A stretch of DNA of 23,378 bases from Candidatus Heimdallarchaeota archaeon (GTDB lineage: Archaea; Asgardarchaeota; Heimdallarchaeia; Heimdallarchaeales; Heimdallarchaeaceae). The stretch spans positions 1 through 23,378 of the forward strand of contig DXJF01000121.1 in NCBI GenBank assembly GCA_019057375.1, read 5' to 3'. The position numbers and the translations under genes are program-made. The notes under the pieces are model-generated. The model was not told the origin of the DNA and ran no database searches. It saw only the letters and a list, made by a program, of their open reading frames with translations. Below are positions 1 through 22,675 of this stretch, one piece after another. The stretch's first letter is position 1; each line of letters starts with the position of its first letter.

Positions 1-113
1 AACATGTCAAGAGTTTTTTCAGAATCTTCTCCCTCTTTGATTTTTACCTTAAATTCATCCCATTTGTCAGCTATCAAAGTTCCACAAGTAAAACATCTTA
101 CTGGAATAATCAT
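1..113 (-). CDS. rpo10: DNA-directed RNA polymerase subunit N/Rpo10, runs off the left edge of the window (not in the ORF track)
   Basis: Manual translation from ATG at 113: [37 protein letters not shown]..., the characteristic RpoN/RPB10 N-terminus ([11 protein letters not shown]); AGGAGTGA SD at 130-123. Confidence 0.95.
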
Positions 114-122
114 TTCAGTCAA

Positions 123-130
123 TCACTCCT
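123..130 (-). promoter_or_regulatory. Shine-Dalgarno site of rpo10
   Basis: AGGAGTGA on the minus strand, 9 nt before the ATG at 113. Confidence 0.6.
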
Positions 131-168
131 TCAATATCACGCATTTAACTATTATGTTATGTGATAAA

Positions 169-1341: not shown

Positions 1342-1461
1342 AAAAGTATAAAGTAGTGGTACTTCAAAAGTTTAGTGCGTCAAGTCAAAGAGGTTATAGA
1401 GAAAATCTTTTAGATGAACTACCTTTATCAACTACAGTTCTAGAAACCATATAAAGTTGAT

Positions 1462-2748: not shown

Positions 2749-2963
2749 TCAAAACCATCTTTTTCTTCAATTTTTATAGACAAATAACTGCCTTTTTCCA
2801 TATGCTTTTAAAGCCATGAAATACGCCCAAAATTAGCTCCATTGCAATTTAAGGACAAAATAGCCTGTAAACGGTGAAAACCGCAGTTTTAAGACTTAAA
2901 AAAAACTTTTTTAACGAATTCTTCAATTAGAACGTGTGTAATACCGTAATTTTTCGACATAAC

Positions 2964-2980
2964 CGAAAAGGTTTTTAATA
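2964..2980 (+). promoter_or_regulatory. Putative BRE/TATA promoter of the histone gene
   Basis: Purine-rich CGAAAAGG followed by TTTTTAATA, about 70 nt upstream of the ATG at 3047. Confidence 0.45.
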
Positions 2981-3046
2981 AGAGTACGGAAGTTATTACC
3001 GTGCTTGCCCCCGTGGCAAGTCAAAACCGACAGAAGTGCAAGTAAA

Positions 3047-3217
3047 ATGATGATCGTACAATCTAAAGTCAGAGATTACGTCAAGGAACTTGGAGATTAT
3101 AAAGTCGGCGGTGACCTTCTAAAAGCTTTAGACGAAAAAGTTGCTAAACTCGTTAAATTAGCAGCTGGCAGAGCCAAAGCAAACGGAAGAAAAACTGTTT
3201 CCGCAAGAGACCTTTAA
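3047..3217 (+). CDS. Short histone-fold protein with truncated alpha3 helix (face-to-face / bacterial-dimer type), 56 aa
   Basis: MMIVQSKVRDYVKELGDYKVGGDLLKALDEKVAKLVKLAAGRAKANGRKTVSARDL: the IVxSKV start and RAKAxGRKTVxARDL end match alpha3-truncated prokaryotic histones. ATG at 3047 preferred over the TTG at 3005. Confidence 0.85.
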   Translation: MMIVQSKVRDYVKELGDYKVGGDLLKALDEKVAKLVKLAAGRAKANGRKTVSARDL

Positions 3218-3259
3218 ATAGCCAGAGACCTCTAAATTTGAAAATATTCATTCAAATTC

Positions 3260-3287
3260 TTTTATTTTTTTTTTGTTTTTTCTTTTC
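3260..3287 (+). terminator. Oligo-T terminator after the histone gene
   Basis: Near-continuous T tract about 40 nt after the stop codon; archaeal terminators are oligo-U. Confidence 0.55.
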
Positions 3288-3293
3288 TAAAAT

Positions 3294-3848
3294 CTAAAAT
3301 GTAAAATTGTCTTCAGGTGTAAGATCTTCATCCAGTGAAATTGAGAGTTCAGCTTGTGGTGATAGAGACAAATAGGTCCATTTTCCAAGAATTTCTACTA
3401 CTATGTAATGACGTGGGTTATCTAGCATTACCTTTCCAACATTAACTTCGGAAGCTACAGCTGTTATTATTTCATTGCGAGAGAGCTGTGAATGTCTTCT
3501 ACGAAGAGTGACTCTCCAAGAGTCATCATCCTTAATCTTAAGGGTGATTTTTTTTGTTACTTCCCTCATGTCTTCCAAGGTAGTAGCAACTCGATATTGA
3601 GTAGGAACAAGTTTGAGTGTATATTGTAAAACAGTTCTATCCTTTTCAAGCTCTTCTTCAATTCTTTGAAGAGTCTTGATAGGATCCTCTTCAAATCTTG
3701 CTATAAACAAACCAGAAATAGCAGAATCAGGTGAAATATCTACATTCTGATAACCCAGTAATTCTGTAAGCAGATAATAGAGTTCGCTAGAAGCATTTCT
3801 CTCTTGAGTTCTTGCACAGGATCCAATTAAGCCGAGAAATTCAGTCAT
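3294..3848 (-). CDS. THUMP domain RNA-binding protein (Tan1-like tRNA-modification adaptor)
   Basis: SGL, KLVP, SWRVTLRRRHSQLSRNEIITAVA and VMLDNPRHYIVVEILG match the THUMP pattern (F.V...RR...V.L.NPD..I.VEI.G). Confidence 0.85.
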   Translation of the reverse strand: MTEFLGLIGSCARTQERNASSELYYLLTELLGYQNVDISPDSAISGLFIARFEEDPIKTLQRIEEELEKDRTVLQYTLKLVPTQYRVATTLEDMREVTKKITLKIKDDDSWRVTLRRRHSQLSRNEIITAVASEVNVGKVMLDNPRHYIVVEILGKWTYLSLSPQAELSISLDEDLTPEDNFTF

Positions 3849-3878
3849 AGAGTGAAATAAATCTGAAATAAATTAAAC

Positions 3879-4730
3879 TTACTCATTAGTGGGTAGATCT
3901 GGATTTTCAGCTGATTGAGAGGAGGAACTACTTCTTATAATCCGTTTAGCTAGTAAAACCAAGACCGACATTCCGAAGAGTAAATACAACCCACCATCAA
4001 AAAGCAAGAATGCAGTAAAGCCGTAAACAAAGGTAACAATCCCTTTAGTTGTAGTTAGACCTGTTAATAAATAGGGAATACGAACTATTAATGTAGCCCC
4101 TAAAATGTAGAGAAATGGAGCCATGGTAATTGAAATCAGTTTAGTTTTCAAGGTGACATTACGACTCCAATCAGGAATTTCTGGATTGAACCCTTTTGGT
4201 TTTTTCTTCTCAAATTTAGAGAGTAGAAGGGGAAAGGTATTAGAAATTCGCTTGCCTTGATCTTGCCTAATGGTTGTAAGATGGATTCCAACCTCTTCGA
4301 ATTTGTCTATAAGCTCATAGGCTTCATCAAAATTTACTCGAATGTCCAACAATCTCAATCTATGTGTTCTGATTCTAACAAGGTAATCCCCGTAATACGC
4401 GAGGAAATAAACGCCCCTTAATTCATCAAAATTCCAAGACTTACTTTTCGTGAATTCATGGAAGATTACTTTTTTTGAAGAAAAGTCTATAGATACTTGA
4501 CCTTTGACAAAGATATAAACTAAAACAATCATAATGGCATTAAGTATTCCAAAATAAAACCAGAGTGACAAACCAAACAAATCTCCAATGAGTACATCAT
4601 TTCTGTATGGTACATAGTAAGCAAGAACATCTATTATCAGTAGTAAGAAGATAGTAGAAATTCTTGGTCGAACCTTATGTACATAGCGAGATTCATCTGA
4701 CTCAGTAAGCATGCAAATAGAAGCCCTCAT
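3879..4730 (-). CDS. Hypothetical integral membrane protein (two TM pairs around a beta-rich soluble region)
   Basis: 283-aa ORF with hydrophobic segments near aa 24-75 and 195-260. Confidence 0.7.
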   Translation of the reverse strand: MRASICMLTESDESRYVHKVRPRISTIFLLLIIDVLAYYVPYRNDVLIGDLFGLSLWFYFGILNAIMIVLVYIFVKGQVSIDFSSKKVIFHEFTKSKSWNFDELRGVYFLAYYGDYLVRIRTHRLRLLDIRVNFDEAYELIDKFEEVGIHLTTIRQDQGKRISNTFPLLLSKFEKKKPKGFNPEIPDWSRNVTLKTKLISITMAPFLYILGATLIVRIPYLLTGLTTTKGIVTFVYGFTAFLLFDGGLYLLFGMSVLVLLAKRIIRSSSSSQSAENPDLPTNE

Positions 4731-4849
4731 GGAAAGTTATGAACTTTTCCGTAAAACGATTAACAAAATAATCCTTTCTTTACCCTAACTAGCTTTAGTT
4801 GTAAAAACAAAGATTTAAAAGAAGAGGAGGAAAAGAAAGCCATAAGAAA

Positions 4850-4958
4850 AGCGCCGTGGGGTAGCGTGGAAAACCCGTCGGGCTCATAAGTTCAAAATTT
4901 GTGAATTTTAAACTGAAAAACCCGAAGATCAATGGTTCAAGTCCATTCGGCGCTACCA
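4850..4958 (+). tRNA. Initiator tRNA-Met(CAU) with encoded CCA and a 31-nt intron
   Basis: Acceptor stem AGCGCCG/CGGCGCT (A1-U72), anticodon stem CGGG/CCCG with three consecutive G-C pairs, CAT at 4885-4887, T-arm AATGG-TTCAAGT-CCATT, ends ACCA. Confidence 0.95.
4889..4919 (+). other. tRNA intron at canonical 37/38 position with bulge-helix-bulge motif
   Basis: Removing 4889-4919 restores the CT-CAT-AA loop. CTCA(4883-86) pairs with TGAA(4914-17) with one C.A mismatch, flanked by 3-nt bulges; the intron forms a GTTcAAAATT/AATTTTaAAC hairpin. Confidence 0.85.
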
Positions 4959-4969
4959 TCTTCATTTTT
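4928..4969 (+). repeat. 42-bp direct repeat, copy 1 (tRNA 3' half plus 11 nt; att-like)
   Basis: ATCAATGGTTCAAGTCCATTCGGCGCTACCATCTTCATTTTT, identical to 5410-5451. Confidence 0.95.
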
Positions 4970-5009
4970 TCCCAAAAATTAATATCTGTTCCTTCAATAT
5001 TGTACTTCT

Positions 5010-5405
5010 ATGATAAAAAGTTCTCGAATGATTAAGAGCTTTAACGTTTTCACACTTGTAGTCCTTCTTAGTTGTGGTATAGTTTTTCTTGCTATTCAAT
5101 ACCCTAAATGGTATCCAGAACTAACTGAAATCTCTTACCAGCCCGTTACAGATTTATATGAAGATTGGGAACTTAATGCAACTACTACTAATTTTTATCC
5201 TGCTAGCTGGGAATTAGCAGAGCCTAAAGTGATTTTTGATGAGAAAGCTTTCAGATTATTAATCGTTATAAGAGCAAGATATAAAGGATATACACTTATA
5301 CCAGCATTCTGGCAGCTGATGACTACTATCAATCTCGTTTTTCCACTGATAGGGAATTGGACTGTTTATTGTAATGATCAAATGTTCATTGTTCAGGTAA
5401 TATGA
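5010..5405 (+). CDS. Hypothetical N-terminally anchored or secreted beta-rich protein carried between the att-like repeats
   Basis: 131 aa; hydrophobic segment at about aa 12-29, then alternating beta-strand patterns ending GNWTVYCND; fills almost the entire inter-repeat interval. Confidence 0.65.
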   Translation: MIKSSRMIKSFNVFTLVVLLSCGIVFLAIQYPKWYPELTEISYQPVTDLYEDWELNATTTNFYPASWELAEPKVIFDEKAFRLLIVIRARYKGYTLIPAFWQLMTTINLVFPLIGNWTVYCNDQMFIVQVI

Positions 5406-5409
5406 TAGA

Positions 5410-5451
5410 ATCAATGGTTCAAGTCCATTCGGCGCTACCATCTTCATTTTT
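5410..5451 (+). repeat. 42-bp direct repeat, copy 2 (orphan tRNA 3' fragment)
   Basis: Identical to 4928-4969; no tRNA 5' half upstream. Confidence 0.95.
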
Positions 5452-5478
5452 ACTGAAACACTATCTTTCAAAGCTAGT

Positions 5479-6696
5479 TTATTTATCCAGTTCTTCTAGG
5501 ATTTTTATCGTAAGTCCAAATGCTTGCTGTAACAGCTGTTCATCCAAATTCTCTACTACATCTTCTGTTGAATGCCAGAGATCAAAGACATCATTTTTAC
5601 CAAATGCGAATATTGTTGTTGCTGAAATGTTCTTTTTAGAGAAACTACCAGCATCTGTATTTCCAAAATGGATTTGTTTCGCGGGCAAATCAAAACCATA
5701 CTTTTCCGCTAGATCGTGAAGATAGATAACCAATTCATTGTCATGAACCACATTATTATCTTTCTCCTTAGCTATTACACCTAATTTTCCACTTCCTAAT
5801 GTTTCATAATTTATGTTTATGGCATCCTTTAACTCATCAATTCGTTTATCTACATAATATTTGCTTCCCACCAGACCAGGTTCTTCTGCTCCAAATGAAA
5901 TTAATCTTATTTCTATATTCTTTGGAGGATTCTCCTTCAGATGTTTTCCTAGAGCAAACAACATAACTACCGAGGTCAAATTATCATTTGCGCCCATAAC
6001 TGGTGTATTTGTAACCATATTTGCCATAAAATAAAAGCCAAACCCTAGACCAATTAACGCTAATAAAAAGATTAAATCAGGTAGGAGTAACCAATCTATG
6101 ACTAAAGATCCTATTGAATATGAGAATACTTTGAATATCCCAACTACAGGTGCAAGAAAGAATATTGATTTCCAAATAGCTGCAATAACTAACAAAGCTA
6201 TTCCAGCTATTGCACTATTTTGAATGAATGTGATTTGAGAAATCCTTTTTTCAAATAGAGGCATGTGAAAAGCTGAATCATGATGTCCTGAGAAAATAAC
6301 AATCTTCTTTTTCTCGTTTACAGGTTCAAACCTAGCAATAATGTTGCTAGAACTGGATTTCTTAGTTAAAAGATTTACAAGATTCTTATCCTTGAACCTT
6401 GCTAAATAGTAAATAATTAACATCACAACCGCTAGAACTAGAGCTAGAAATGGAATGAAGAAATATGCTACTACAGAAATAAAATATCCCCATACAAGGA
6501 AGAGAATAAGATTCTGTAAAGCTCTTCCAACCACGGGAAATGTCTCAACTTCAACATTAGAGGAAAGAGCGCGGAATTTTTCTTCTATATACTTGCATGT
6601 TTTATGATCTGCTTCTGTACCCGTAATTCGTACTCCAAAAGTATCTGTAATAAACTTAATTGAATCAAGAAATGAATCCATAAGGGTTTGAGACAA
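5479..6696 (-). CDS. Membrane-embedded M28/M20-family zinc peptidase
   Basis: Metal-ligand motifs GHHDS, GANDN, GAEEPGLVGS, NYETLG and WHSTED, with several TM helices inserted. Confidence 0.9.
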   Translation of the reverse strand: MSQTLMDSFLDSIKFITDTFGVRITGTEADHKTCKYIEEKFRALSSNVEVETFPVVGRALQNLILFLVWGYFISVVAYFFIPFLALVLAVVMLIIYYLARFKDKNLVNLLTKKSSSSNIIARFEPVNEKKKIVIFSGHHDSAFHMPLFEKRISQITFIQNSAIAGIALLVIAAIWKSIFFLAPVVGIFKVFSYSIGSLVIDWLLLPDLIFLLALIGLGFGFYFMANMVTNTPVMGANDNLTSVVMLFALGKHLKENPPKNIEIRLISFGAEEPGLVGSKYYVDKRIDELKDAININYETLGSGKLGVIAKEKDNNVVHDNELVIYLHDLAEKYGFDLPAKQIHFGNTDAGSFSKKNISATTIFAFGKNDVFDLWHSTEDVVENLDEQLLQQAFGLTIKILEELDK

Positions 6697-6744
6697 ATAA
6701 GTTTTATTTAAGTCTTAACAACTTTCTCCCCCAAAATGAAGAAA

Positions 6745-6930
6745 TTATCTTCCACTCTTAGCTTTAACAAAGGGGGATTTTTCTTTGGTTTCTAGTTTGA
6801 TGCCAACTTCATGCTTTATTTCATTTAACTTCCATAAAACAAAGTCGATAGTTTCTTGATTAAGTATAACATCCTTATTGGAATGATGTTTAAGATGACG
6901 TACTAAATCTTCACGCTTTATCTCTTCCAT
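6745..6930 (-). CDS. Small hypothetical protein, 61 aa (possible degenerate histone-fold)
   Basis: ATG preceded by AGGCGA (SD-like); amphipathic helix-loop-helix pattern; codirectional with the M28 gene. Confidence 0.55.
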   Translation of the reverse strand: MEEIKREDLVRHLKHHSNKDVILNQETIDFVLWKLNEIKHEVGIKLETKEKSPFVKAKSGR

Positions 6931-7088
6931 TGAAATCGCCTTTTCTCAATATTATATATTGAATTTGCATTATAAACTCAAGAATTTTCTTTATTAATTG
7001 TATGTAATATTAATGCAATACTAGAAAATTGTCAAAAAAGATTAAATCTACTTTGAGAATTGGTTTATTTATAGATGTAAGGGAAAAT

Positions 7089-7157
7089 GGCGTGGAAGGA
7101 ATCATCTTAGTTTTCAGCAAGATTAAGACGGACTAATTTTAATTTCCTTCCTACACC
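7089..7157 (-). ncRNA. Candidate structured small RNA or 5' leader
   Basis: Minus strand GGTGT-A-GGAAGGAA pairs with TTCCTTCC-ACGCC (13 bp, one G.U, one bulge), inner TTAGT/ACTAA stem; begins about 33 nt after a TATATAAG box. Confidence 0.3.
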
Positions 7158-7171
7158 TTATTTTTGTACGC

Positions 7172-7202
7172 TCATTCAAACACTTATATATTGTTTCAAT
7201 GA
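7172..7202. promoter_or_regulatory. Imperfect palindrome (10/11) bracketing a TATA box; candidate operator
   Basis: TCATTCAAACA-cttatatat-TGTTTCAATGA; the spacer reads ATATATAAG on the minus strand. Confidence 0.5.
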
Positions 7203-7295
7203 TTAGAATGATTGATACAAAAGCTGTTTTTTATCTGCAAATACCGTCTTAATGCATTTTCACTTGATTTGTGTGAAAAAAACGACTGATTTTTT

Positions 7296-7936
7296 TCAAT
7301 CTATAATTAATTGGAAAATTTGCTTTTTGAGTTGTTCTTTTACAAAATTCTTAAACTCAGTTTTTGAACCAAAGTTAGAAACGCTATAATTTGGATCAAA
7401 TAAGATTGTATTTGTCAATAGTACCGTTCCATGAATTACAGACCAAAGATATAATGATAGTTTGCTTGAATCGATATCTTTAGACAAACCTTGAGAGAGA
7501 GTTGATTCAATCCAATTTAAGAGTTTCAATGTCTTTTGGGGAATAAATTTCTCATCTTCTGAAGGTTGACCCTCAGCTGGTGGTGGTGGGAGTACAAACA
7601 TTAGTTTATATCTTCTATAATTTGATTCCGCGAAATCAAAATAAAAATCAGTAAGTTTTTCCAATAAGTCAACAGATGTTCCTTTATGATTCAAAACAAT
7701 TGGTTGAATTTGATTTCTCAATTCAGTAAAATCTTGTCTCATAATTTCAAACCAGAGCGTTCTCTTACTAGAGTAGTAGTTATAGAGATTACTTTGGGAC
7801 ATATCAAGTCGTTTAGCTAATGCTCTCATACTAAATCCCGTAGTCCCAACTTCATAGAATAATTCTCTAGCTTCTGTGATAATTCTCTGAATTTGTTTAT
7901 CTTTTGCCTCTGGTGATCTAGCTCTACTCTTACCAT
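7296..7936 (-). CDS. TetR/AcrR-family transcriptional regulator; the 5' end needs a frameshift or a non-canonical start
   Basis: The frame stays open upstream of the track's ATG (7829) and encodes GKSRARSPEAKDKQIQRIITEARELFYEVGTTGFS before MRALAKRLDMSQSNLYNYYSSKRTLW (TetR HTH). The only nearby ATG (7936) is 1 nt out of frame. The C-terminal LWSVIHG is typical of TetR_C. Confidence 0.85.
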
Positions 7937-10310: not shown

Positions 10311-10386
10311 CCTGTCGAATCTAAATAGATGACGGATTCTTGACCAAGCCTATCGAATCTAGAGAGTCGATGGATTCTTGGCAGAA
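10311..10386. repeat. Imperfect 38-bp tandem duplication spanning the tnpB stop codon
   Basis: 10311-10348 vs 10349-10386: 28/38 identical (26 of the first 32). Confidence 0.75.
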
Positions 10387-11918
10387 TCCTTAAGCCATTG
10401 ACCTAAAGGCGCTAGACACTTGAAAAGTGTTATCGGGTAGTAGTCACTGGAAAGTTTGTCTCCAATCTTGGTAAAACCTTGTTTAGGTTTCAGAGCATAT
10501 TGAATCAACCTTTTCCCGATGTTTTTTGCCCCATTCAGATCAGCATCAAGTTCATAACTGCAATCATGGCAATTAAATTGTCCTTGACCTGTACGGGTAG
10601 TGTTAAGTGAATCACACCTTGAACATCGTTTCGAGGTCCAACTTTCATTTATAACTACAACCCGATGGGATTCAAATCCATGGAGAGCAAGTTTTTGCTT
10701 CAGTTTAGTAACAAAGAAACGGAAGCGCCACTTGTGCACCGAACTTCTTAAGGATTTGTTTCCGCTACCGCGAGGGTGACTTTTTTGAATCTTACCAGGA
10801 TATCCTACTGATATAAACAGATTATATCGCTTTTTCAACTGGAGAATAAAGTCAACTAGTTGGTTAACTGCATATCCCAGTTCCTGTTCTTTAACAGAGC
10901 GAAGTCTTCTACGCAGTTGGTAGAGTTTGACGTTAAGCTGATTTGTAGGTTGTCCGTTGTATTTGCGCGTATCTAACACACTTTGAATAGACTTAATCCT
11001 GTAATCTAGCTTATGTATCTGTTGTTGTCGTTCCTTATCTACGATGAATTTTATATTATCCATGATTACTTTTCCAGAGGGGGTAAGTAACACTGCAACA
11101 GCTGTCTTCTTTATCCCTAGATCTACTCCCAACACAGCAGGTGGTTGAGTAGAATGGTAAAGAGGGACAGTATATTGGAGGGTGAAATGTGCCCACCACT
11201 GTTGATTTTTAGGAGAATATACTAGTTCCAACGTTTTTATCTTCTCTAGTTTCATCTTCTGTTTGTGATAAGGTGACAATGCTAAAGGTAGCCAAAGTTT
11301 CTTATGGTTTGATTTACCAGACCTTTTCGTATCAAGTGAATCCCTTAATACCAACCAAATTTTAGCAACGGTATTCTTGGGACTGTAAATCATTAGAAAC
11401 CGTTCTCTATTTATTGACTGTATTCGGGGGGTTTTCTTCTTGAATCGTGGTCTTTTCAGCTCCTTTTTGGTAAGACTCTGTTGTGTTTTCCAGCTTTCAT
11501 AAGTCCAGATAGCTTTATCTCTACATTCGATGAATTCATCATGGGAACAGCGAGGATAGCGTTTCTTCAAGTCGTGAGGAACTGTTGTTCGTAGTTTGTG
11601 GTTTGTTCGTTTAGAAGTCGTTAAAGTCAATTTATCCAGAAGGGATTTGTTGACTGTACCATTGTTTCGAAGTACTTTGTTCTCGTTGTGTTTGATGATT
11701 CGTAGGTAGTCATTGCAGATTCTGGTATCGCGTGTTGTAATGATTCTCAACTTATCGCACTTCCGAGCTGTCATCCGTTCTGTTTTTATCCTGAGTTTAA
11801 CAGTATCGTAAACAGGGAGAGATGGTGCTTGAAGTGTGCAATTTGTTTTTCCACTTTTCTCATTTTTTTGTTTTCCATTTTTTAGTTTTTTTTGTACATT
11901 ATCTTCTTCAATTTTCAT
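10359..11918 (-). CDS. tnpB: TnpB/Cas12-superfamily RNA-guided endonuclease with a rearranged (Fanzor-like) RuvC active site
   Basis: RuvC-I GVDLG (D269), canonical RuvC-II Glu replaced in ISVGYP (G375), Glu in INESWTSKRC (E428), zinc finger CSRC-x14-CHDC, RuvC-III DADLNGAKNI (D463); numbering from the GTG at 11927. A GAGGTGA SD favours the ATG at 11918. Confidence 0.9.
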   Translation of the reverse strand: MKIEEDNVQKKLKNGKQKNEKSGKTNCTLQAPSLPVYDTVKLRIKTERMTARKCDKLRIITTRDTRICNDYLRIIKHNENKVLRNNGTVNKSLLDKLTLTTSKRTNHKLRTTVPHDLKKRYPRCSHDEFIECRDKAIWTYESWKTQQSLTKKELKRPRFKKKTPRIQSINRERFLMIYSPKNTVAKIWLVLRDSLDTKRSGKSNHKKLWLPLALSPYHKQKMKLEKIKTLELVYSPKNQQWWAHFTLQYTVPLYHSTQPPAVLGVDLGIKKTAVAVLLTPSGKVIMDNIKFIVDKERQQQIHKLDYRIKSIQSVLDTRKYNGQPTNQLNVKLYQLRRRLRSVKEQELGYAVNQLVDFILQLKKRYNLFISVGYPGKIQKSHPRGSGNKSLRSSVHKWRFRFFVTKLKQKLALHGFESHRVVVINESWTSKRCSRCDSLNTTRTGQGQFNCHDCSYELDADLNGAKNIGKRLIQYALKPKQGFTKIGDKLSSDYYPITLFKCLAPLGQWLKDSAKNPSTL

Positions 11919-11981
11919 GAATTTCACCTCTTAAAATTGTTAGTGTATAATGAACACTGAAACCATTATCGAATGATCTAA

Positions 11982-12224: not shown

Positions 12225-14957
12225 TTATGACAAATCTTTTTTCATCAAGTGATTGACCAGTTCTCGTTTTGCACAGAATAGAGAGTAATCATTATATGCT
12301 AGCTTTCTTTCCAATAAGACTTGTTTCAGTAATTCCTCTATTGTTATGTGAAATTTTTCTAGAATAGCTTGTTCAATTTCATATTTTGTATATCTCTTCA
12401 TTAAAATCGAGCAAACGAGTTGAGCATTTTTCCTATAATCTAAACATTTTTGTTTGTTCATGCTAGAAGAACAAAATGTGTTACAAACATCATCCTGTAT
12501 GTTTTTATTCTCTTCTAAAACACTAGCCGTGGGTTGTTCTTCGAAGCTTTTAACCATTATCAAAGGACTAACTCTTTTCTTCGAGGTTTGTTTGCTGCTG
12601 TTTTCTTTCTCGTTCTTCTTGCTTTTACCTTCCTTTCTAGAGTGTCGATTAGCTTTTCCAAGTTTTTCATACAAGGAGGTTCGCATATCAATGAAACTGG
12701 TGTAAAGGAGGGGATAGGTGAAGGAGGGATATCTACTTTCAAGAACTTGAAGGTACTGATTATAGTTGAGAGGGTTGCGAGAAAAATCTAAGGTAGTCAT
12801 TTCAAGAGCTTGATCTTGACCATCAATCCAAACTAAACAATGTCGGATAGGAAGTTGTTGAACAAGCTTAAAGCGGTCATCTGGTAGATTAAATGCATTA
12901 GCAATTTTTTTGATGGCTTGATTTGATCGAAAAACAATTTTAGTGGAGGAATTGGCATGGACAATGTTGCTCACACTATCCCACATCTGGGAAATGGTTA
13001 AGTGACCAATCCCTAAGCTTCTCCCAAGTAAGAATTTATTTTCTGCAGTTATTAAAGAAGCAGAACTCTCAGTCCTATAGAAATTAGGTATAACATTAAT
13101 TGCTTCTTCTAAAACAACTATATAACGCAACTTGTTTGTAAACTCTCCAGTAGAAGCGAAACGATAGAATAATTTCAGAATCAAGTTACAAATAAGAAAA
13201 ATATCGGAAGGTCTTGCAGCTCTTCTTTGAAATTGGCTTAAATCAAAAATTATACTTTTTCCTTGTTCCAATAAATCGAAGTCTAAAGTGGTTTCTTTCA
13301 CTCCCAGCATTTCAAAGTTTATGGGATTAAAGATATAGTTGAGTCTGTTAAGAACGGCATCTAATGTGTGTTGTATAGACGAGATGTGGCTTGTTTGTTT
13401 GGCAAGAGCAATGAGGTTTTCAACAAAAGTCTCTAATGTGCGTTCATCAGCTTTATGGGTCAAAAATAAGGCGTTTTCAAAAAGGTTCTTCATAGAAGGA
13501 CTAAACTCTTGACTGGAAGTAACCATCATTTCTTCAATGATGAGGAGTGTGCTCCGTACATCATCTTCATCTTTAGTATCAAAAAGGTTGATGCATAGAG
13601 GATGAGGCTGTCCAATAGTATAAATTTCCACATTAGGTTCATCCACAAATGTTGCAGCATACTCTCCCTTCACATCAAAGATTAAGCAAGGTTTCTGGTA
13701 CCTAATCAGCTGTTCAAGTATACCACAAACTAAACGGGTTTTACCGCGTCCTATCATCCCATAGATTTCAACATTATAGAGAAGTTCTTCAATGCCAATC
13801 AAGACTTCATTTGTTGACAGTACAGTACGTCCATTACCCAAAAGAATAGAGTGTTCACGTTGAAGGATTGTTTTCTCCCTTGGGTGCAAGACAAAAGCAG
13901 TTCCCTGATAATCTAAGGGGAGATGGAAATACTTTGACAGTTTATCTAAAGGTACAATTTGGGGTTTTTTGAGTCGAAGTACATTCTTGTTTTTAGGGAA
14001 ACTTGTAGCATGGCGGAAATTTTTCAAAGTTTGAGCATCATCAGAAAAGGAATAGAATTGTAAAAGAAAAGTAGTGGATTTCTTCTCCTTTTTCTTAACT
14101 CTTAGCAATAAAGTAATGTTTGGAAAAATCTCATTTGATATAGTTCTGAACACTAGTTCCATCATATCTATATCGGTTTCTTCTAAAGAAGAAATATCTA
14201 ATGGAATTTTGATTTTCATTTCCTTAAGAACCTGAAATAGTAGCTTTGTTTGTTCTACGGTTAATATTTCGCTTGAACTCTCGTAATATGTAGTAAGTAA
14301 ATTCGATAGAAACAACAATTTCTGCTGCATCTTACTTACAAGCTTCTTTTTGGAAAACCCTTTCATTGAAACAAAGAAATAGATGCTGATAGAAGATTCA
14401 TATTTAGATATGAACATTTGAATATGGTCAATGTTGAGGGCCAATGTCTGACTGAAATTCTCATGTACTTTATAGGCAAAATGTTTTTTATTGACAATGT
14501 CACTACTTATAGAATTCAACAGTAGAACGCTAGTAATCTTGTAAAATGGAAGACACATTCTTCGCTGACAAAATACTTTTTGGTCCTTTGTCATAACATA
14601 TGGGGAAAAGATACTAAATGTAAGAAAAATAATTATGCTGAGAAATGTTATTGCTCCGCTTATGCTCGAAAATACGCTTCGTAATGAATTGCTTATCATC
14701 TCCCATAAATTAGAGAAAAAAGTAGAAATAGACGAGAAGAAACGCATGTCATTTAGAAATGATAGAGATGGAAACCATCTAGCTAATTCAGGAAATAAAA
14801 AGAGAAAAGTGATTACTCCCACAATTAAGGCAATAACATAAGGTGATACAGTGCGTATCACAGATCTTCCTGTTCGTTTCAAAGATCTAGAATCTGTTGA
14901 ATGTGAAGAATTCCTTTGCCTGTTTGCTCGATATCTGGAATCCTTCATGTTCACCAC
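12225..14957 (-). CDS. Membrane-anchored HerA/FtsK/VirB4-superfamily P-loop ATPase (DUF87-like), 910 aa
   Basis: Walker A GMIGRGKT, IFDVKGEY, Walker B VVLEEA, GRSLGIGHLTISQ (HerA-clade motif), NSSTKIVFR; two N-terminal hydrophobic segments; GTG start. Confidence 0.85.
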   Translation of the reverse strand: MVNMKDSRYRANRQRNSSHSTDSRSLKRTGRSVIRTVSPYVIALIVGVITFLFLFPELARWFPSLSFLNDMRFFSSISTFFSNLWEMISNSLRSVFSSISGAITFLSIIIFLTFSIFSPYVMTKDQKVFCQRRMCLPFYKITSVLLLNSISSDIVNKKHFAYKVHENFSQTLALNIDHIQMFISKYESSISIYFFVSMKGFSKKKLVSKMQQKLLFLSNLLTTYYESSSEILTVEQTKLLFQVLKEMKIKIPLDISSLEETDIDMMELVFRTISNEIFPNITLLLRVKKKEKKSTTFLLQFYSFSDDAQTLKNFRHATSFPKNKNVLRLKKPQIVPLDKLSKYFHLPLDYQGTAFVLHPREKTILQREHSILLGNGRTVLSTNEVLIGIEELLYNVEIYGMIGRGKTRLVCGILEQLIRYQKPCLIFDVKGEYAATFVDEPNVEIYTIGQPHPLCINLFDTKDEDDVRSTLLIIEEMMVTSSQEFSPSMKNLFENALFLTHKADERTLETFVENLIALAKQTSHISSIQHTLDAVLNRLNYIFNPINFEMLGVKETTLDFDLLEQGKSIIFDLSQFQRRAARPSDIFLICNLILKLFYRFASTGEFTNKLRYIVVLEEAINVIPNFYRTESSASLITAENKFLLGRSLGIGHLTISQMWDSVSNIVHANSSTKIVFRSNQAIKKIANAFNLPDDRFKLVQQLPIRHCLVWIDGQDQALEMTTLDFSRNPLNYNQYLQVLESRYPSFTYPLLYTSFIDMRTSLYEKLGKANRHSRKEGKSKKNEKENSSKQTSKKRVSPLIMVKSFEEQPTASVLEENKNIQDDVCNTFCSSSMNKQKCLDYRKNAQLVCSILMKRYTKYEIEQAILEKFHITIEELLKQVLLERKLAYNDYSLFCAKRELVNHLMKKDLS

Positions 14958-15289
14958 TTGAATTGCTAGTACTTCATAAGCTTACAAATTCAACCAGACA
15001 AGCATATAAAAACACCTCAAGATATTACTGTTAAAATAGTTTCAATAGGATTTGAAGAAAGAAAGTACAAGGAAATAAAAAGTTCAAATTTCACAAGGAA
15101 TGAATGTGATGGAAGTTAACACCATTAACTCTCTGAAAACATAAACACAACAAAGAAACTAATTAGAAGAGTGAAATCACGAATTCAAAAAAAATCATCT
15201 AATAGTGAAAATTTTACTGCTAATTCTAATAAAACTACAAATAATAACTAACAATATTCTTTTTGAAGAAAAAGTTCTGTTTAATCACT

Positions 15290-15424: not shown

Positions 15425-15678
15425 TTGTAAAAATCACATGTTCTTTTGTAGAGTTTTATGCTAACTTATGTTTTCTATTATCGAATTTGTAAATTCAAAC
15501 AAGTACTGAATTATTGTTTTGTATCTCACCAACAATAGATTCTTTAAACTTTATCTTTCTTCCGTCTAGCATTGGTAAGAGTAAGATTAAATACAACGAA
15601 AATAAAAACTTCTTTATATATCAAAAGATAATCAAATCTCTAATGAATATAGACAAGTTTGTGAATGGAGGAAGATAA

Positions 15679-16995
15679 TTGAATTATATTAACAATATTT
15701 CTAATAACAAAATTTCCTTTTCTGCAGCGAAAGTAAGGTTGGCTTCGAAATCTGGAAATCGTTGTGCAATGACAGGATGTTATAAACAACTTGTATTCAA
15801 AGATAGGGAAAGTGGTGCAGAAGTTTTTATTGCTCAAACACATCATATTCGTTCTATAGATAAAAAACATTCTAGGTATGATCCTAATTTTCATGTTGAG
15901 AAATATAATAATACAGAAAATCTAATCTTGTTTTGTTCTGATTGTCATAAGATTGTTCATGATGCTCCAAATTACTATTCTATAGAAATCCTCCTGAAAA
16001 TAAAGAAAGAACGTGAAGAGAAAGTTGATAATAACGAAGCTTTTATTCAAAAGGTTGAGGAAGAAAAGCAAGAATTTGAAGAAGCTTTTGAAGAGTTTTC
16101 ACTTCTTCCAATGCTAACAGATTTTCACAAGAGAAGGAAGCATTGGCTAAACGACAGGTTAAAAGGTGTTTTCAATGAATTTAATCCAATAAACTACCAA
16201 AATGTGTTTGAATCACAATTTCCTAAAACAGGTTTAATTACTTCTGTATGGAAAAAAGATTACGGATTGATGTCTGATGATTATTATAAACTGTATTCTG
16301 TCCAAAATTACAATACAAGTGAGGATATAGATATAAGTGCTTTTGAAACTGCTGTACCATCTTTCAATACTGATTCACTTGTGGTCAGGAATGTCTTGGA
16401 GACAGAATTTGCCAAAATTGTTTTAGACCTTATAAAACTTGAAGAAACACAAAGTGATTCTTGCTTCATTTATGAGAATTTTTCAGAAATAATAGAAAAT
16501 ATATCTCACTTCAATAAACCTCTACTATTATTAGATGACCATACAGATGATTTGATTGATTTTAATTCTAAGGAACCTAAAGTGTTTATGGATATCTTCT
16601 TTGCAAGAAATGTGGAAAGTGTTAAGTATCGCAAGGTATCAATGAAAGTCAATGATGTTAAACTAAATATTATAAAATATCATATTCCTACAAAACTAAG
16701 AGAAAAATATCCACAGTTTTCAGAGACTAAAGGGATAATCATTGATCAAGACAAAGTTGAATATAGAATTAAGGAACCTCTTAGAGTGGAATGGAGAGTA
16801 AAAAAAGATGCAGTGAAAGTTATTGAACATGATGATGCTTCTTCAACTAGAAATCTAGATAAGGATTATTTCAATTTCAGATGTTTCACTTTAGCTGAAA
16901 TAAAAAACCATGATACTACAATAATCTGGAAATATACAGGTGAAGAGCTAGAAATATTAAAAGAAAAGAAGAAGAAACTTCAAAAGCTGACTTAA
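15679..16995 (+). CDS. HNH endonuclease (N-terminal) fused via a charged helical linker to an uncharacterised C-terminal domain, possibly HK97/encapsulin-like
   Basis: SGNRCAMTGC...HHI...RYDP...NNTENLILFCSDCHKIVH is the effector-type HNH seen in HNH-SAVED and similar fusions; E/K-rich aa 105-165; the C-terminal call is tentative. Confidence 0.75.
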   Translation: MNYINNISNNKISFSAAKVRLASKSGNRCAMTGCYKQLVFKDRESGAEVFIAQTHHIRSIDKKHSRYDPNFHVEKYNNTENLILFCSDCHKIVHDAPNYYSIEILLKIKKEREEKVDNNEAFIQKVEEEKQEFEEAFEEFSLLPMLTDFHKRRKHWLNDRLKGVFNEFNPINYQNVFESQFPKTGLITSVWKKDYGLMSDDYYKLYSVQNYNTSEDIDISAFETAVPSFNTDSLVVRNVLETEFAKIVLDLIKLEETQSDSCFIYENFSEIIENISHFNKPLLLLDDHTDDLIDFNSKEPKVFMDIFFARNVESVKYRKVSMKVNDVKLNIIKYHIPTKLREKYPQFSETKGIIIDQDKVEYRIKEPLRVEWRVKKDAVKVIEHDDASSTRNLDKDYFNFRCFTLAEIKNHDTTIIWKYTGEELEILKEKKKKLQKLT

Positions 16996-17034
16996 CTATT
17001 GTAGAAAAGATATTTCACTCTATCAATTGGATAT

Positions 17035-17262
17035 TTATCGTTTATTAAGTTCGTCTGTAGAGATTGATCCACTTTGATATCTCCTTTTAACGGTTGAAGA
17101 TGTTAATACTATAACTGAGATTAAACTCACCATTATAGAGAGTGAATGAAGGGGGGTTTTTCTTGTTGATGGATTAACAAAAGGAATAGTTTTACTAGAA
17201 GTTCTTCCCACTCCATCTAAAGCTACAAAAGTTATAATTACAGATCCTCCGTTTGGTATCAT
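17035..17262 (-). pseudogene. C-terminal remnant of a surface protein (end of an Ig-like domain plus TM anchor)
   Basis: IPNGGSVIITFVALDGVGRTSS resembles the last strands of Ig-like repeats (NG.Y.I...A.D..G..S), followed by a hydrophobic helix and KRR; a stop lies 2 codons upstream of the ATG. Confidence 0.45.
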
Positions 17263-17281
17263 CAGTTATAGTAGAAAAATG

Positions 17282-17547
17282 TCAATATATTCTCTTATTA
17301 ATCCTCATTAAGGGGATATTTTGATACATCTTGTTTGGTTTGAGTATTATCTTTCCCTCCAACAATTTTTACTCAAAGAACTTCTCTGCTACCACCAAAG
17401 TCCACCTTCTTCTCTTCAGCTCTCTTCAAGAACTCTTCAAAGGAATATTTCTTCTCTTTCAGTTTGTCCATTATCTTCTCTAAAATCTCCAAACAGTCCA
17501 GAAAAACTTATTTTCTCGCCTATCTTTTCGAAACAGTTTTTTTCCAT
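17282..17547 (-). pseudogene. Decayed winged-helix protein gene (resembles the MCM C-terminal wH)
   Basis: Joined over two frameshifts and one TAA: MEKNCFEKIGEK/FLDCLEILEKIMDKLKEKKYSFEEFLKRAEEKKVD/VVAEKFFE*KLLEGKIILKPNKMYQ. Confidence 0.45.
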
Positions 17548-17607
17548 TATAAAAAGAATTGATATAAAAGGGTAACAGAGTTTAAGAATTAAAAGGATAG
17601 AGAAAGT

Positions 17608-18105
17608 TCACAGAGTGGAAACATCTAACATTGCTTTTTCTATTTTTAGTTTTCCTTGTTTCTCTAAAGAATGAATAGCATTCACAATTGCTTGAGCTGA
17701 TAAAGGATAGAACAAAGGATTAATCCCATCTGTTACTCCAGAAGTTTGTACAATAATAATTGCTTGGTAGATAGATATTTTCTCTTGATTTGTACTCTTT
17801 TTATAATATTGTAGAGCTTGAGTGACCTGATCGATTGAATATTCGTGAGGAACAGGAATCCCAATGGATGAGATTTTTTTAGTAAGTTTTTTCAAGATCA
17901 TATCTCTTTTTCCTTGATTACATTCTTGACACAAAGTCCAAAGATTGTCAAAGTCATCTGTACCCCCCTTGGAAATTGGAATAAAATGGTCAACGGTCAA
18001 TTTTATGTTATCTTCACGACCACGACCACAAAAACGACATTTATAATTATCTCTGCTAAAAATTAATGTATTAACTTCTTTACTAATGTCCCTTCTTGAT
18101 GTCAT
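17608..18105 (-). CDS. McrA-like HNH endonuclease with C-terminal helical (winged-helix-like) extension
   Basis: IFSRDNYKCRFCG, VDHFIPISKGGTDDFDNLWTLCQECNQGK (H-N-N with CxxC pairs); C-terminal AIHSLEKQGKLKIE. Confidence 0.9.
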   Translation of the reverse strand: MTSRRDISKEVNTLIFSRDNYKCRFCGRGREDNIKLTVDHFIPISKGGTDDFDNLWTLCQECNQGKRDMILKKLTKKISSIGIPVPHEYSIDQVTQALQYYKKSTNQEKISIYQAIIIVQTSGVTDGINPLFYPLSAQAIVNAIHSLEKQGKLKIEKAMLDVSTL

Positions 18106-18367
18106 TTATTTTGTGTACATCGTACTAAACTTAAAGTTTCTTCATGAAATTATCTTTTTTTAATCAAGAAAAAACAAATGTTCTAATCTAAGATTGGGGT
18201 ATACGTAGGAATAGGAACAATCATACTAGTAGAAACTCTGTGATCGTTACTCTATGCTAGCTGCTGTTTCTACTTTAGAAAAAGACTTTTGACTATTTAA
18301 ACTGCAATAGACTGAAAGAGATATACTATTGTGATATGTTTATAACAGTGTTTACATTAAAATCAGT

Positions 18368-19423: not shown

Positions 19424-22400
19424 TTAGATATAATAATCTAATTTTTCTTTATACTTATTTTTTTCAATCATCTTATGTTCTATTTTTGTGTACAAATTAT
19501 CTAGATCCTTTGTAAGAGAGAATGTCCTTTCAATAACTGCAACAATTGTTTTGAAATATTTCAAATCCTTCAAACCCAGTTCATTTCCCTTTCTTCTTCT
19601 CAACCATTGCTTTAATACTTGGTATCCGCCAATTCTATAATCCCAAACATTCTTTTTAACTCCGGTAAAATATTGTTCTTTATTAATTTCTAATCTTTCA
19701 TGATTTTCATCATATCTCAGATGCTCAACTATATTATCTCCAGGATTTGGAAAGCCAATATGTTTTGTTTCTACGAGTAATTTATCTTCTTCTTTTAAAA
19801 GATGTAAATTTGCAAGTTCTTGACCCTTTTTCGACATAGCAATAAACAATCTAAATGAGGTTGGAAAAGGTATCTTTGGCATATCATAATCAAGACAGGA
19901 TTGCCATTTTTCCCTATAATGGTTGGAGTAAAGAATCCCGTAAATGTAATAGAGTACCTTTTCTGCTATTTTCTCATTATCATTTAGGATATTTCCATTG
20001 TGATCATCAACAGCTTCAGTTTTGTAAGAGCCTCTTAACAAACTTAGAAGTCTTTCCTTGATATTCAAAGATAGTTTTTCTCCTTTTCCTTTCTTATAAT
20101 GTAATGGACAGAGTATAGATGACCCTCTATAAGTTACTAGAACCTGATCTGGCATATCTGATACAATAAAAACCATATCCCAAGGATATTTGCTTGGTCT
20201 ACCAGATCTACCAACAACTAGGGCAAGTTCCTCAGATTCATTTCCTCTTAAATGCTCTGCTCTTCCCCTTGCTGTAATTTGAACAAATCCCTCTTGATAG
20301 AAGATATATTGAAAATCAAATGGACGGTAATGTATCCTTCGAATATATTCTTCGACTTTCTTATTGGAATTTCTTAAGGTGGTAACATAATTATTTATTC
20401 GTTCTTCTGTCCAATCATTTCCTTTCCACTTCATAAGATTATATCGCTGTATAAGTTCAGTGACAGATAAATCGCGATTCTTGAATTCATCAAATCGTCT
20501 AACAAGATTTTCTTGTTTCAAGTCAATAGATAACTCGTCTCTACTTGTTTGAACACCAATTTGAGCAACGTAAAAAATATCCTCTCGAAAATCGAAAAAT
20601 TTTTCCCATGATTCACTTTTCTCACGACTTATCTGGTGTCTATTTAATAAGAAATAAGGTCCCCTAGGTTGTATTTTCTCAAAAAAGTCTCCTTTTTCAT
20701 ACAATTGCAAAATACGTGAATTTTTCAAACTGTCCAATTTCTCTATAGCTGAACCCCAAACATCACCATAATAAACATTGGCAAAACCTAGTTCATCCTT
20801 TCCCTCAAATTCATTATTCTTGTATTTGATTAAAAAGAACATACAAACCCCAGTTTGAATGTTAAATACGTTTTCATTTTTCATATCTTTAGGCGGAGTT
20901 TCTTCTCGAGCATCTCCATGTAAATCATAGATAAAGATTTCATCAAATGCTTTAAGCAGACTCTCTCTCATTCCTCTATGAATTCTTCCTCTCAAAAAAT
21001 TGTTATTTGTTATAAATGCTACAATTCCACCTTTCTTTGATTCGGAAATTTTCCAATGGGCGAATCGTATGAACTTAATATAATCATCGGACAAAGGTTG
21101 TAAATTTTCTCTAGATTTTTTATCACTTGGTTTGTAATCTTTCATCAAATTTTCAATAAATGAATGTTGATTTGTGGAACCGATTTTGTAAGGAGGATTA
21201 CCCATTACAACAAAAATTGGTGTCTTTGCTTTTACTCTATTAGCTAATCGCCCCTCAGTGGTTAATGCAAGAAATCCTGTTAAGTCTGAGGGTTCATTTT
21301 TTGTTTCCAATGCGTTTGTAAGATATAGTTTGAATCTATCAGTTTCTTTAAGTGGAAATTTCAAAGATTTGAAATACATTCTTAGTTTGAAATGACTGAT
21401 AGCATATGCTGTAACCATTATCTCAAATGCGTAGAAGTTCTTCAGTATATGCTCATTTATCAATGAGCCAAAGGTTCCAAGATCCCCTCTGTTTGCAAGC
21501 TTACCACATACACAGTTGATTGTCTGAAGAATGAATGTTAATGTACCAGCACATGGATCTAAGACAGAAACCTTTGGATTCGCGAAACCATCATTAACTT
21601 TGAATCTTTTTTCTAACATTTGATCAACAGAATTAACCATGAAATTTACAATTTGAATTGGAGTATAGTACACTCCTTTTATCTTTTTCAAATTTGGATT
21701 GTAGGATTCGAGAAATTTTTCATAGAAATAGATAGTAGGGTCTATTCTACTATCATTAAAAAATGAAAAGACATGATCCAAATCTGTATTATTTAGCAAT
21801 TGTATTATACTATTACAACAAAATTCAACATTTTTTGGCATTTTAATCATAAATTGAGTATATAACTCCACCAGAACAGGTATACTTTGAGGGATTTCTT
21901 TCCACACAGAAGAAATTGTCAATGGTTCTTTCTTTTCTTCAGCTTTTTCATGATGAACAACCGCTAGTAGCAAACTATAACAGATAGTTTGTGCTAACAT
22001 GTCTGAAAATTCCTCGTGAGAAATATTTTCAATTAGAGAGTTTCTAAAACCTTTAAATAAAGATTCAATTGCTTGGACCCTAAATATCACTCCATTTTCT
22101 GTCTCAGTCAGATATGAAATAAAAATATCTTTCATAATTGCCGTTAATCTAGAAAGAGAGTTTGTTAACCTGTTGATATCTTTTATTTTCCTAGCTTTGA
22201 AACTGAAGAAATCTGTGAAACACTCTCTTAATTGCTTTATATTGTTTGGTTTTATTTTGAAATGTTCTTTTTGTAATTCTTCACTTGAGCATAAATTTAT
22301 TCTTATTAATTGTGAGCTTTCATTTAAAAAGATAAATTCTCTGAAATTGGTTAGACATATGTTTGGAAAAGCATTCTTATATCTTAATACTTGTTCAGAT

Positions 22401-22675
22401 TGAATGAAGGCTTTAATTTTTAAATTTGGACTTTTCGCTTCAATATATCCCTGAATCAGCTCACCATTTAAAACTATGAAATCTGGCATCCCCCACTTTT
22501 CTACAGGATTAACAATTACTCTTTTATCTGGTGTATCAAATATGTTGGAAATAAACTCGGATAAAATAGGATAGAAGGACTGTTCTGTTGATTTTTCTGT
22601 TTCCAACACAGACTTGATATCTAGTAAATAATTGTCCAAGTATTTCTCGAAAGCTATTTCTGATACTATAACCAT
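19424..22675 (-). CDS. Single-polypeptide restriction-modification enzyme (PD-(D/E)xK nuclease + N6-adenine MTase + Type ISP-like specificity domain; no helicase, Type IIL/IIG-like)
   Basis: PDF-x11-EAK nuclease motif, YYTP, DPCAGT (motif I), MGNPPY (motif IV), YIKFIR, C-terminal YYIYGILYS...YR...PKIP and VWDYRIGGYQVLKQWL; 1083 aa intact. Confidence 0.9.
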   Translation of the reverse strand: MVIVSEIAFEKYLDNYLLDIKSVLETEKSTEQSFYPILSEFISNIFDTPDKRVIVNPVEKWGMPDFIVLNGELIQGYIEAKSPNLKIKAFIQSEQVLRYKNAFPNICLTNFREFIFLNESSQLIRINLCSSEELQKEHFKIKPNNIKQLRECFTDFFSFKARKIKDINRLTNSLSRLTAIMKDIFISYLTETENGVIFRVQAIESLFKGFRNSLIENISHEEFSDMLAQTICYSLLLAVVHHEKAEEKKEPLTISSVWKEIPQSIPVLVELYTQFMIKMPKNVEFCCNSIIQLLNNTDLDHVFSFFNDSRIDPTIYFYEKFLESYNPNLKKIKGVYYTPIQIVNFMVNSVDQMLEKRFKVNDGFANPKVSVLDPCAGTLTFILQTINCVCGKLANRGDLGTFGSLINEHILKNFYAFEIMVTAYAISHFKLRMYFKSLKFPLKETDRFKLYLTNALETKNEPSDLTGFLALTTEGRLANRVKAKTPIFVVMGNPPYKIGSTNQHSFIENLMKDYKPSDKKSRENLQPLSDDYIKFIRFAHWKISESKKGGIVAFITNNNFLRGRIHRGMRESLLKAFDEIFIYDLHGDAREETPPKDMKNENVFNIQTGVCMFFLIKYKNNEFEGKDELGFANVYYGDVWGSAIEKLDSLKNSRILQLYEKGDFFEKIQPRGPYFLLNRHQISREKSESWEKFFDFREDIFYVAQIGVQTSRDELSIDLKQENLVRRFDEFKNRDLSVTELIQRYNLMKWKGNDWTEERINNYVTTLRNSNKKVEEYIRRIHYRPFDFQYIFYQEGFVQITARGRAEHLRGNESEELALVVGRSGRPSKYPWDMVFIVSDMPDQVLVTYRGSSILCPLHYKKGKGEKLSLNIKERLLSLLRGSYKTEAVDDHNGNILNDNEKIAEKVLYYIYGILYSNHYREKWQSCLDYDMPKIPFPTSFRLFIAMSKKGQELANLHLLKEEDKLLVETKHIGFPNPGDNIVEHLRYDENHERLEINKEQYFTGVKKNVWDYRIGGYQVLKQWLRRRKGNELGLKDLKYFKTIVAVIERTFSLTKDLDNLYTKIEHKMIEKNKYKEKLDYYI

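Follow-up and report, generated by a model that had tools for sequence, protein, structure and literature searches.

The fusion gene and its nuclease domain

The stretch of DNA considered here, called the window throughout, is the 23,378-nucleotide contig DXJF01000121.1 (positions 1 to 23,378) of a Candidatus Heimdallarchaeota archaeon from the Asgardarchaeota. It carries genes for a TnpB/Cas12f-like protein, a HerA/FtsK-type ATPase, a small stand-alone HNH endonuclease and a large restriction-modification enzyme (Table 1), and in their midst lies the gene that is our subject. This is a single intact open reading frame (ORF) of 438 codons with a TTG start, whose product joins an N-terminal HNH nuclease domain, through a charged linker, to a C-terminal domain with a predicted HK97 fold, the fold of virus capsid proteins and encapsulins. 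Probably the product is an antiviral protein of a new type. The gene has an orthologue (P0003) at locus L001, in a genome of another genus, with 87% amino-acid identity and the same TTG start. A database gene call (P0002) begins at Met31 and so truncates the HNH domain; we prefer the TTG start because homology to Cap5 already sets in at residue 17. Between the window copy and P0003, the ratio of nonsynonymous to synonymous substitution rates (dN/dS) is 0.41 for the whole ORF, 0.34 for the C-terminal domain and 0.67 for the HNH part, with a dS of ~0.13; these figures are rough, because the divergence is low. The value for the HNH part (window 15679-16038 against L001) may reflect a nuclease head under relaxed or diversifying selection, but the substitutions are too few for a judgement.

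The nuclease domain is an HNH (His-Me finger) domain of the Cap5/SPARHA type. The match to Pfam HNH_2 barely passes the threshold (E=1.6e-4); the PADLOC matches are to PDC-M68A (3e-23), the CBASS "Effector Endonuclease" (7e-20), SAVED_HNH (1e-15) and SduA (3e-14), in each case to the nuclease part of the profile only, and the best PDB sequence matches are Cap5 (7rwm, 5.6e-9) and 9om4 (5.4e-7), the HNH-APAZ effector of SPARHA. The zinc ligands and catalytic residues are in place (C29/C34, H55-H56, N81, C86, C89 and H90). An earlier note on this DNA, made from its letters and ORF translations, had put an effector-type HNH at about residues 20-110 and a charged linker behind it, and both readings hold: the Pfam, PADLOC and PDB matches map the nuclease to residues 17-120, and residues 101-165 contain 13 Glu and 9 Lys among 65 residues and are predicted to begin as a helix. 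In the Cap5/SPARHA class of HNH nucleases, activity requires that the nuclease domains be tetramerised by the platform to which they are attached (PMC12738770).

The C-terminal domain and its predicted HK97 fold

The C-terminal domain, which the earlier note had called an unknown domain of about 250 residues, comprises ~275 amino acids, and residues 125-438 match nothing in Pfam, the PHROGs or the PDB sequences. Even at E<=10, none of the nine family members matches Pfam or the PHROGs, Linocin_M18 (PF04454) and capsid families such as PF05065 included. An exhaustive HMMER pass through 1.84 billion representatives recovered only 10 relatives, to which a word-index search for homologues, run with the family profile, added no further members, and an ESM Atlas feature search with the domain gave no usable match. 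The alignment of the relatives (A1) nevertheless shows a real conserved family, with the blocks LLPxFxEFxxRRxxWL, EFNP, PKxG, KGIxIDxxxVEYRVKEPLRxEWR and FDFxCFTLAEI; the last two, the most conserved, fall in residues 360-418. A search of the PDB sequences with the family profile (hmmsearch) gave chance-level matches only, and an hhalign comparison with four Asgard-provirus proteins of the Phage_capsid family reached a probability of 0.2%. The profile similarity to capsid or encapsulin families that the earlier note had looked to for support thus failed to appear in the Pfam, PHROG, PDB-sequence and hhalign comparisons alike.

The resemblance is one of predicted structure. An AlphaFold2 model of residues 125-438, built without templates from the 9 sequences of alignment A1, has a mean predicted local distance difference test score (pLDDT) of 68.7 and a predicted TM-score (pTM) of 0.68, with core blocks at 80-90. 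The model shows an A-domain and a P-domain of the HK97 fold, the long spine helix and extended beta-sheet included, all in the canonical order. When the model was compared with the PDB by Foldseek, all of the 107 matches at E<=1e-3 were HK97-fold capsid proteins or encapsulins, with low global TM-scores of 0.3-0.5. In a search of 48,161 chains that did not rely on Foldseek, the top 50 were exclusively HK97-fold proteins, BFVD yielded 113 capsid matches, and a structure search of the ESM Atlas returned capsid clusters only, at TM ~0.5. A second AlphaFold2 run on the full-length protein scored lower (pLDDT 53.5), and its placement of the HNH relative to the capsid-fold domain is not usable; the core blocks again reached 80-90, and capsids and encapsulins again headed the Foldseek ranking, though with E>=3e-3. 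Because several structure libraries, two aligners and the second AlphaFold2 run agree, we take the HK97 fold to be the best-supported reading of the domain and, as a matter of prediction, a very probable one, much as the earlier note had anticipated from the sequence. Among the encapsulin motifs that this note had picked out by eye, the string likened to the spine helix (residues 236-251) does lie within the predicted helix of residues 229-252, although the significance of such resemblances at the level of sequence could not be shown. The E-loop region is the least certain part: it has one short strand (model residues 60-67), model residues 71-92 score below 50, and the relatives in alignment A1 differ there by insertions and deletions.

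Could the capsid fold be an artefact of prediction, the domain having some other, perhaps new, fold and serving a defence nuclease as a regulatory part not yet characterised? The smallness of the alignment, the modest mean pLDDT, three of five models below 54, the poor full-length run and the lack of sequence-level support all speak for such a view. It is nonetheless quite improbable, considering that no templates guided the model, that the core blocks score well in both runs, that one and the same fold emerges, with end-to-end coverage, from four libraries and two aligners, and that even the poor full-length model ranks capsids first.

Relatives with exchanged nuclease heads

In four relatives (P0008, P0009, P0013 and P0014), the same C-terminal domain stands behind a DUF4365 domain, of Mrr-like restriction fold, instead of the HNH. 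Their matches are to Pfam PF14280 and to the nuclease section of the PADLOC profile for the restriction endonuclease associated with prokaryotic Argonautes (Aga_REase). Since the C-terminal domain is found behind either head, two unrelated nucleases have replaced one another while the capsid-fold module stayed constant, the kind of fusion to other effectors for which the earlier note had proposed to search.

Of 400 genomes surveyed from the phylum, 9 contain the C-terminal domain. Seven of these belong to the window's own family (the window genome and 6 of 30 others; 2 of 24 in its own genus), and the two matches outside it are weak (E ~6-9e-4). The domain is therefore essentially restricted to one family, the Heimdallarchaeaceae-like genomes, and is patchy even there. 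Several copies have decayed to short fragments with internal stops (G003:C16:182013-182225, G003:C24:74051-74254 and G160:C264:1834-2078), implying that it has been repeatedly lost as well as gained. Canonical encapsulins were found in none of 201 genomes of the phylum.

A mobile cassette and its defence-gene settings

A comparison by blastn shows that window positions 15445-18226 are ~90% identical in nucleotide sequence to L001:79-5015, in the other genus. The shared cassette consists of the HNH-capsid-fold gene, a gene of 801 codons and the small HNH gene; the window copy lacks ~2.25 kb present in L001, which cover most of the 801-codon gene. The HerA-like gene next to the cassette, divergently transcribed from the fusion gene, has only 40% amino-acid identity between the same two genomes, and it is because of this difference that we conclude that the cassette moved between genera recently. 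The HerA-like gene was considered as a conserved partner of the fusion gene and rejected: it is unrelated to the genes beside the other loci and, while it occurs in 5 of 5 related genomes tested, it is unlinked to the fusion family in most of them (in G026 it lies ~5.4 kb from a DUF4365 variant). The DUF4365-type relatives do not have the small HNH gene beside them either, and the comparison of loci showed no neighbour that is conserved across the family. The TnpB/Cas12f-like protein, at the border of the variable region, is probably a transposon-associated nuclease.

Table 1. Features of the window. The fusion gene, its upstream region and its subdivisions are listed first, then the neighbouring genes; residue numbers are those of the fusion protein.
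Feature	Position	Strand	Basis
Whole ORF, HNH - linker - predicted HK97-fold fusion, 438 residues	15679..16995	+	ORF; orthologue P0003
Conserved upstream region, presumed promoter of the fusion gene	15445..15678	+	Block of ~91% nucleotide identity with the cassette of the other genus begins at 15445
Cap5/SPARHA-type HNH (His-Me finger) nuclease domain, residues 17-120	15727..16038	+	Pfam, PADLOC and PDB matches
Glu/Lys-rich helical linker, residues ~121-143 (helix from about residue 102)	16039..16107	+	Helix 102-139 of full-length model; composition
N-terminal helix of predicted capsid-fold domain, residues 144-162, part of the LLPxFxEFxxRRxxWL motif	16108..16164	+	Model helix 20-38; aligns from residues ~7-12 of family-1 encapsulins
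Would-be E-loop region, residues 163-228, low confidence, variable length	16165..16362	+	Model pLDDT; indels in alignment A1
Predicted P-domain spine helix, residues 229-252	16363..16434	+	AlphaFold2 model
Predicted A-domain, residues 262-356	16462..16746	+	AlphaFold2 model
Predicted long P-domain beta-strands and last A-domain strand, residues 360-418	16756..16932	+	AlphaFold2 model; alignment A1
Extra charged C-terminal helix, residues 421-437, missing in some relatives	16939..16989	+	AlphaFold2 model; alignment A1
TnpB/Cas12f-like protein, edge of variable region	10359-11927	-	Cas12f1-like_TNB 1.4e-14; PADLOC Cas12u3 1.8e-22
HerA/FtsK-type ATPase, 910 residues, N-terminal membrane segments	12225-14957	-	DUF87 8e-13; PHROG labelled terminase large subunit 2.7e-11
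Stub of the 801-residue gene (intact at L001:1670-4075), deleted in the window	17035..17305	-	blastn; ORF list
Small stand-alone HNH endonuclease, 165 residues, within shared cassette	17608..18105	-	Pfam HNH_5 6.5e-14; falls within the block of 90% identity
Type IIG/ISP restriction-modification enzyme, 1083 residues, outside shared cassette	19424..22675	-	Pfam Type_ISP_C 6e-60; PADLOC REase_MTase_IIG 5e-181

The surroundings of the gene, described earlier as a restriction-modification enzyme and another HNH, have been identified as such (the type IIG/ISP and HNH_5 genes), and other loci of the family also lie in defence-gene settings. At L005, a DUF4365 variant stands beside a SIR2-TPR protein, with the SIR2 type that is associated with prokaryotic Argonautes, a DrmC-like PLD protein and a type IIG restriction-modification enzyme. 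This locus is a rich uncharacterised Asgard defence island that recurs in six metagenome contigs; its segments 1-7746 and 13017-15194 also encode an 897-residue RING protein and a leucine-rich repeat protein, and the type IIG enzyme there is a methyltransferase. The neighbours of P0008 (CP084167.1, Heimdallarchaeota PR6) encode RING, Roadblock and leucine-rich repeat proteins, and L004 has a Cas4-like nuclease and a transposase. Locus L003 holds PDC-S18, a HEPN protein and a pair of CBASS-type cyclases, together with a copy of the capsid-fold gene (in the segment L003:394-2491) that is without its nuclease; it keeps the conserved linker, and a stop at ~391 closes the frame ahead of it. This copy lies 100 bp upstream of one of the cyclases, on the same strand (PADLOC Cyclase 9e-47). 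The second cyclase and a gene of 155 codons are on the opposite strand.

What the fusion protein might do

The exchange of nuclease heads, the defence-island context and the patchy distribution all support the earlier suggestion of a hitherto undescribed defence effector made of a nuclease and a capsid-fold module. That the gene, more precisely, provides Heimdall-group Asgard archaea with a stand-alone and horizontally mobile antiviral effector on a capsid-fold platform seems to us, from this analysis, to have about an even chance of being right. The capsid-fold domain would then take the place of SAVED in Cap5, or of APAZ and the prokaryotic Argonaute in SPARHA, as sensor or assembly platform. 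As the HNH class cuts only after tetramer assembly, we infer that it is through assembly that the capsid-fold domain controls the nuclease; this assembly-gated model is preferred because the platforms of its relatives assemble nucleases and because HK97 proteins self-assemble, with their N-termini facing the lumen. The most likely trigger would be nucleation by, or co-assembly with, the capsid, scaffold or procapsid proteins of an infecting head-tailed virus, and the N-terminal nucleases would cluster on the face that in all known HK97 shells is luminal, the side on which the viral genome is packaged. Head-tailed viruses of Asgard archaea do exist, one of them with an encapsulin-like capsid protein. 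A specific version of this mechanism is rather doubtful: here the domain would be a viral capsid protein, domesticated by the host as a mimic, that the assembling procapsid of a head-tailed Asgard virus recruits or nucleates; this would cluster and thereby activate the HNH (or DUF4365) nucleases on the luminal face, and the genome would be destroyed during its packaging.

Several considerations weigh against an effector built on a capsid fold. The fold itself is a moderate-confidence prediction from nine sequences in which the E-loop is not confidently modelled, and the sequence-profile comparisons linked the domain to no capsid or encapsulin family. No relative turned up in IMG/VR or INPHARED, nor was any virus with a similar capsid protein identified in them. 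The constraint on the nuclease is weakly documented, given the dN/dS of 0.67 of the HNH part at low divergence. The defence role is argued from guilt by association and domain logic, and the oligomerisation, nuclease activity, viral trigger and protective effect of the protein are all putative.

Among the alternatives, the one that survives best, unlikely as it is, would have the protein form a nuclease-loaded, encapsulin-like nanocompartment: a constitutive closed shell with the HNH or DUF4365 domains inside, like the ferritin-like domain of the archaeal Flp-fusion encapsulins. Such a shell could either cage a toxic enzyme until opened or degrade any DNA that enters. The enzyme domain is fused N-terminally, in analogy to the Flp fusions, and would in this reading be the cargo of the shell; co-folding three copies of the C-terminal domain, done without controls, gave a score of 0.00 that speaks neither for nor against self-association.

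An origin as a structural gene is harder to sustain. The HK97 fold is a hallmark of head-tailed viruses, and HNH genes occur in the packaging modules of HK97-like phages; one might thus imagine a cryptic virus, a satellite or an element resembling a gene transfer agent whose major capsid protein carries a nuclease for genome processing or packaging, the more so as the cassette is mobile and the HerA/FtsK-like ATPase matches a terminase-labelled PHROG. However, no portal, terminase, protease or tail gene lies beside the window gene or at four other independent loci, IMG/VR and INPHARED hold no relatives, and the HerA-like gene occurs, mostly unlinked, in all of the five related genomes tested; the HNH is, moreover, of the Cap5 immune-effector type and exchangeable with DUF4365. 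We therefore judge this origin very unlikely. Equally slight is the chance that the protein is a CBASS-type effector whose C-terminal domain replaces the SAVED domain of Cap5 as receptor for the nucleotide messenger of a CD-NTase: Cap5 is its closest characterised HNH and the L003 member adjoins a cyclase, the only locus in support, but that copy has lost its nuclease, no SMODS gene occurs in the window, in its own genome (89% complete) or beside four other loci, and the domain has a predicted HK97 fold, the SAVED_HNH profiles matching through their HNH part only.

Comparison with known systems

The preferred reading of the protein, as an assembly-gated effector, invites comparison with Cap5, the HNH-SAVED effector of CBASS (7rwm, 7rwk). 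Both proteins are single chains of similar size with a nuclease head of the same N-terminal HNH subfamily and a regulatory C-terminal domain, and activation of Cap5 by oligomerisation is established (PMC12738770). They differ in that the C-terminal domain here is predicted to have the HK97 fold rather than that of SAVED, and in that no CD-NTase is encoded in the window or its genome. We considered a SAVED identity for the domain and rejected it: the SAVED_HNH and Effector profiles align over only their first ~110-128 of 368-389 positions, there is no Pfam SAVED match, and another fold is predicted.

The closest parallel to the exchange of heads is offered by the HNH-APAZ effector of SPARHA and the DUF4365-APAZ effector of SPARDA, in which the same two nucleases are swapped on a constant C-terminal platform; DUF4365 we take to be the DREN domain of SPARDA. 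The SPARHA protein (9om4) is of nearly the same length, 435 residues against 438, and its nuclease is switched on by filament assembly. Here, in contrast, the platform is predicted to be of capsid fold instead of APAZ, and the neighbours in the window and at L001, L003, L004, L005 and L011 include no Piwi or Argonaute match. An APAZ identity for the C-terminal domain found no support in sequence, as the matches to 9om4 and to Aga_REase end at the nuclease domain; no Argonaute-like chain occurs among the fold matches of the domain, an absence that does not by itself exclude the family.

On the side of the capsid fold, the nearest counterparts are the family 1 fusion encapsulins, that is, the Flp-encapsulin of Pyrococcus furiosus (2e0z) and the cytochrome fusion of anammox bacteria, the only two kinds of fusion in the encapsulin census. 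An N-terminal Flp fusion is internalised when the encapsulin assembles (PMC8346489). In these proteins the fused enzyme has an iron or redox function and the gene sits in a metabolic operon, whereas here a predicted DNA nuclease is encoded in a defence island and a mobile cassette; the Linocin_M18 signature of family 1 is missing, and any assembly of the present protein is putative. The HK97-type major capsid proteins of head-tailed viruses, those of the Asgard verdandiviruses included, are the remaining point of reference, and the fusion gene differs from them in having no morphogenesis genes nearby. The four Phage_capsid proteins of Asgard proviruses that were compared have no sequence or profile similarity to the C-terminal domain, which here is joined to an immune-type nuclease.

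Full-text literature searches turned up no account of HNH or DUF4365 joined to an HK97 or encapsulin domain, nor of such a domain in any defence protein, in keeping with the earlier remark that no named system has this architecture. The HK97 fold has two known roles, in the capsids of viruses and in the metabolic shells of encapsulins, and a nuclease-wired module in defence would, if true, be a third. It would add a new platform to the assembly-activated nuclease effectors, beside SAVED (Cap5) and APAZ with the prokaryotic Argonaute (SPARHA and SPARDA). Should a closed shell form, this would be the first natural protein compartment to contain a nuclease, and as such of interest for engineering. 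Should the domain instead co-assemble with viral capsids, the mimicry of capsid subunits would constitute a new principle of virus sensing, and the protein the first immune effector to use a viral capsid fold as its sensor, in the archaeal lineage closest to the eukaryotes. As it stands, the fusion protein combines two known kinds, the assembly-activated nuclease effectors and the fusion encapsulins, and it could prove categorically new if the capsid-mimic mechanism holds.
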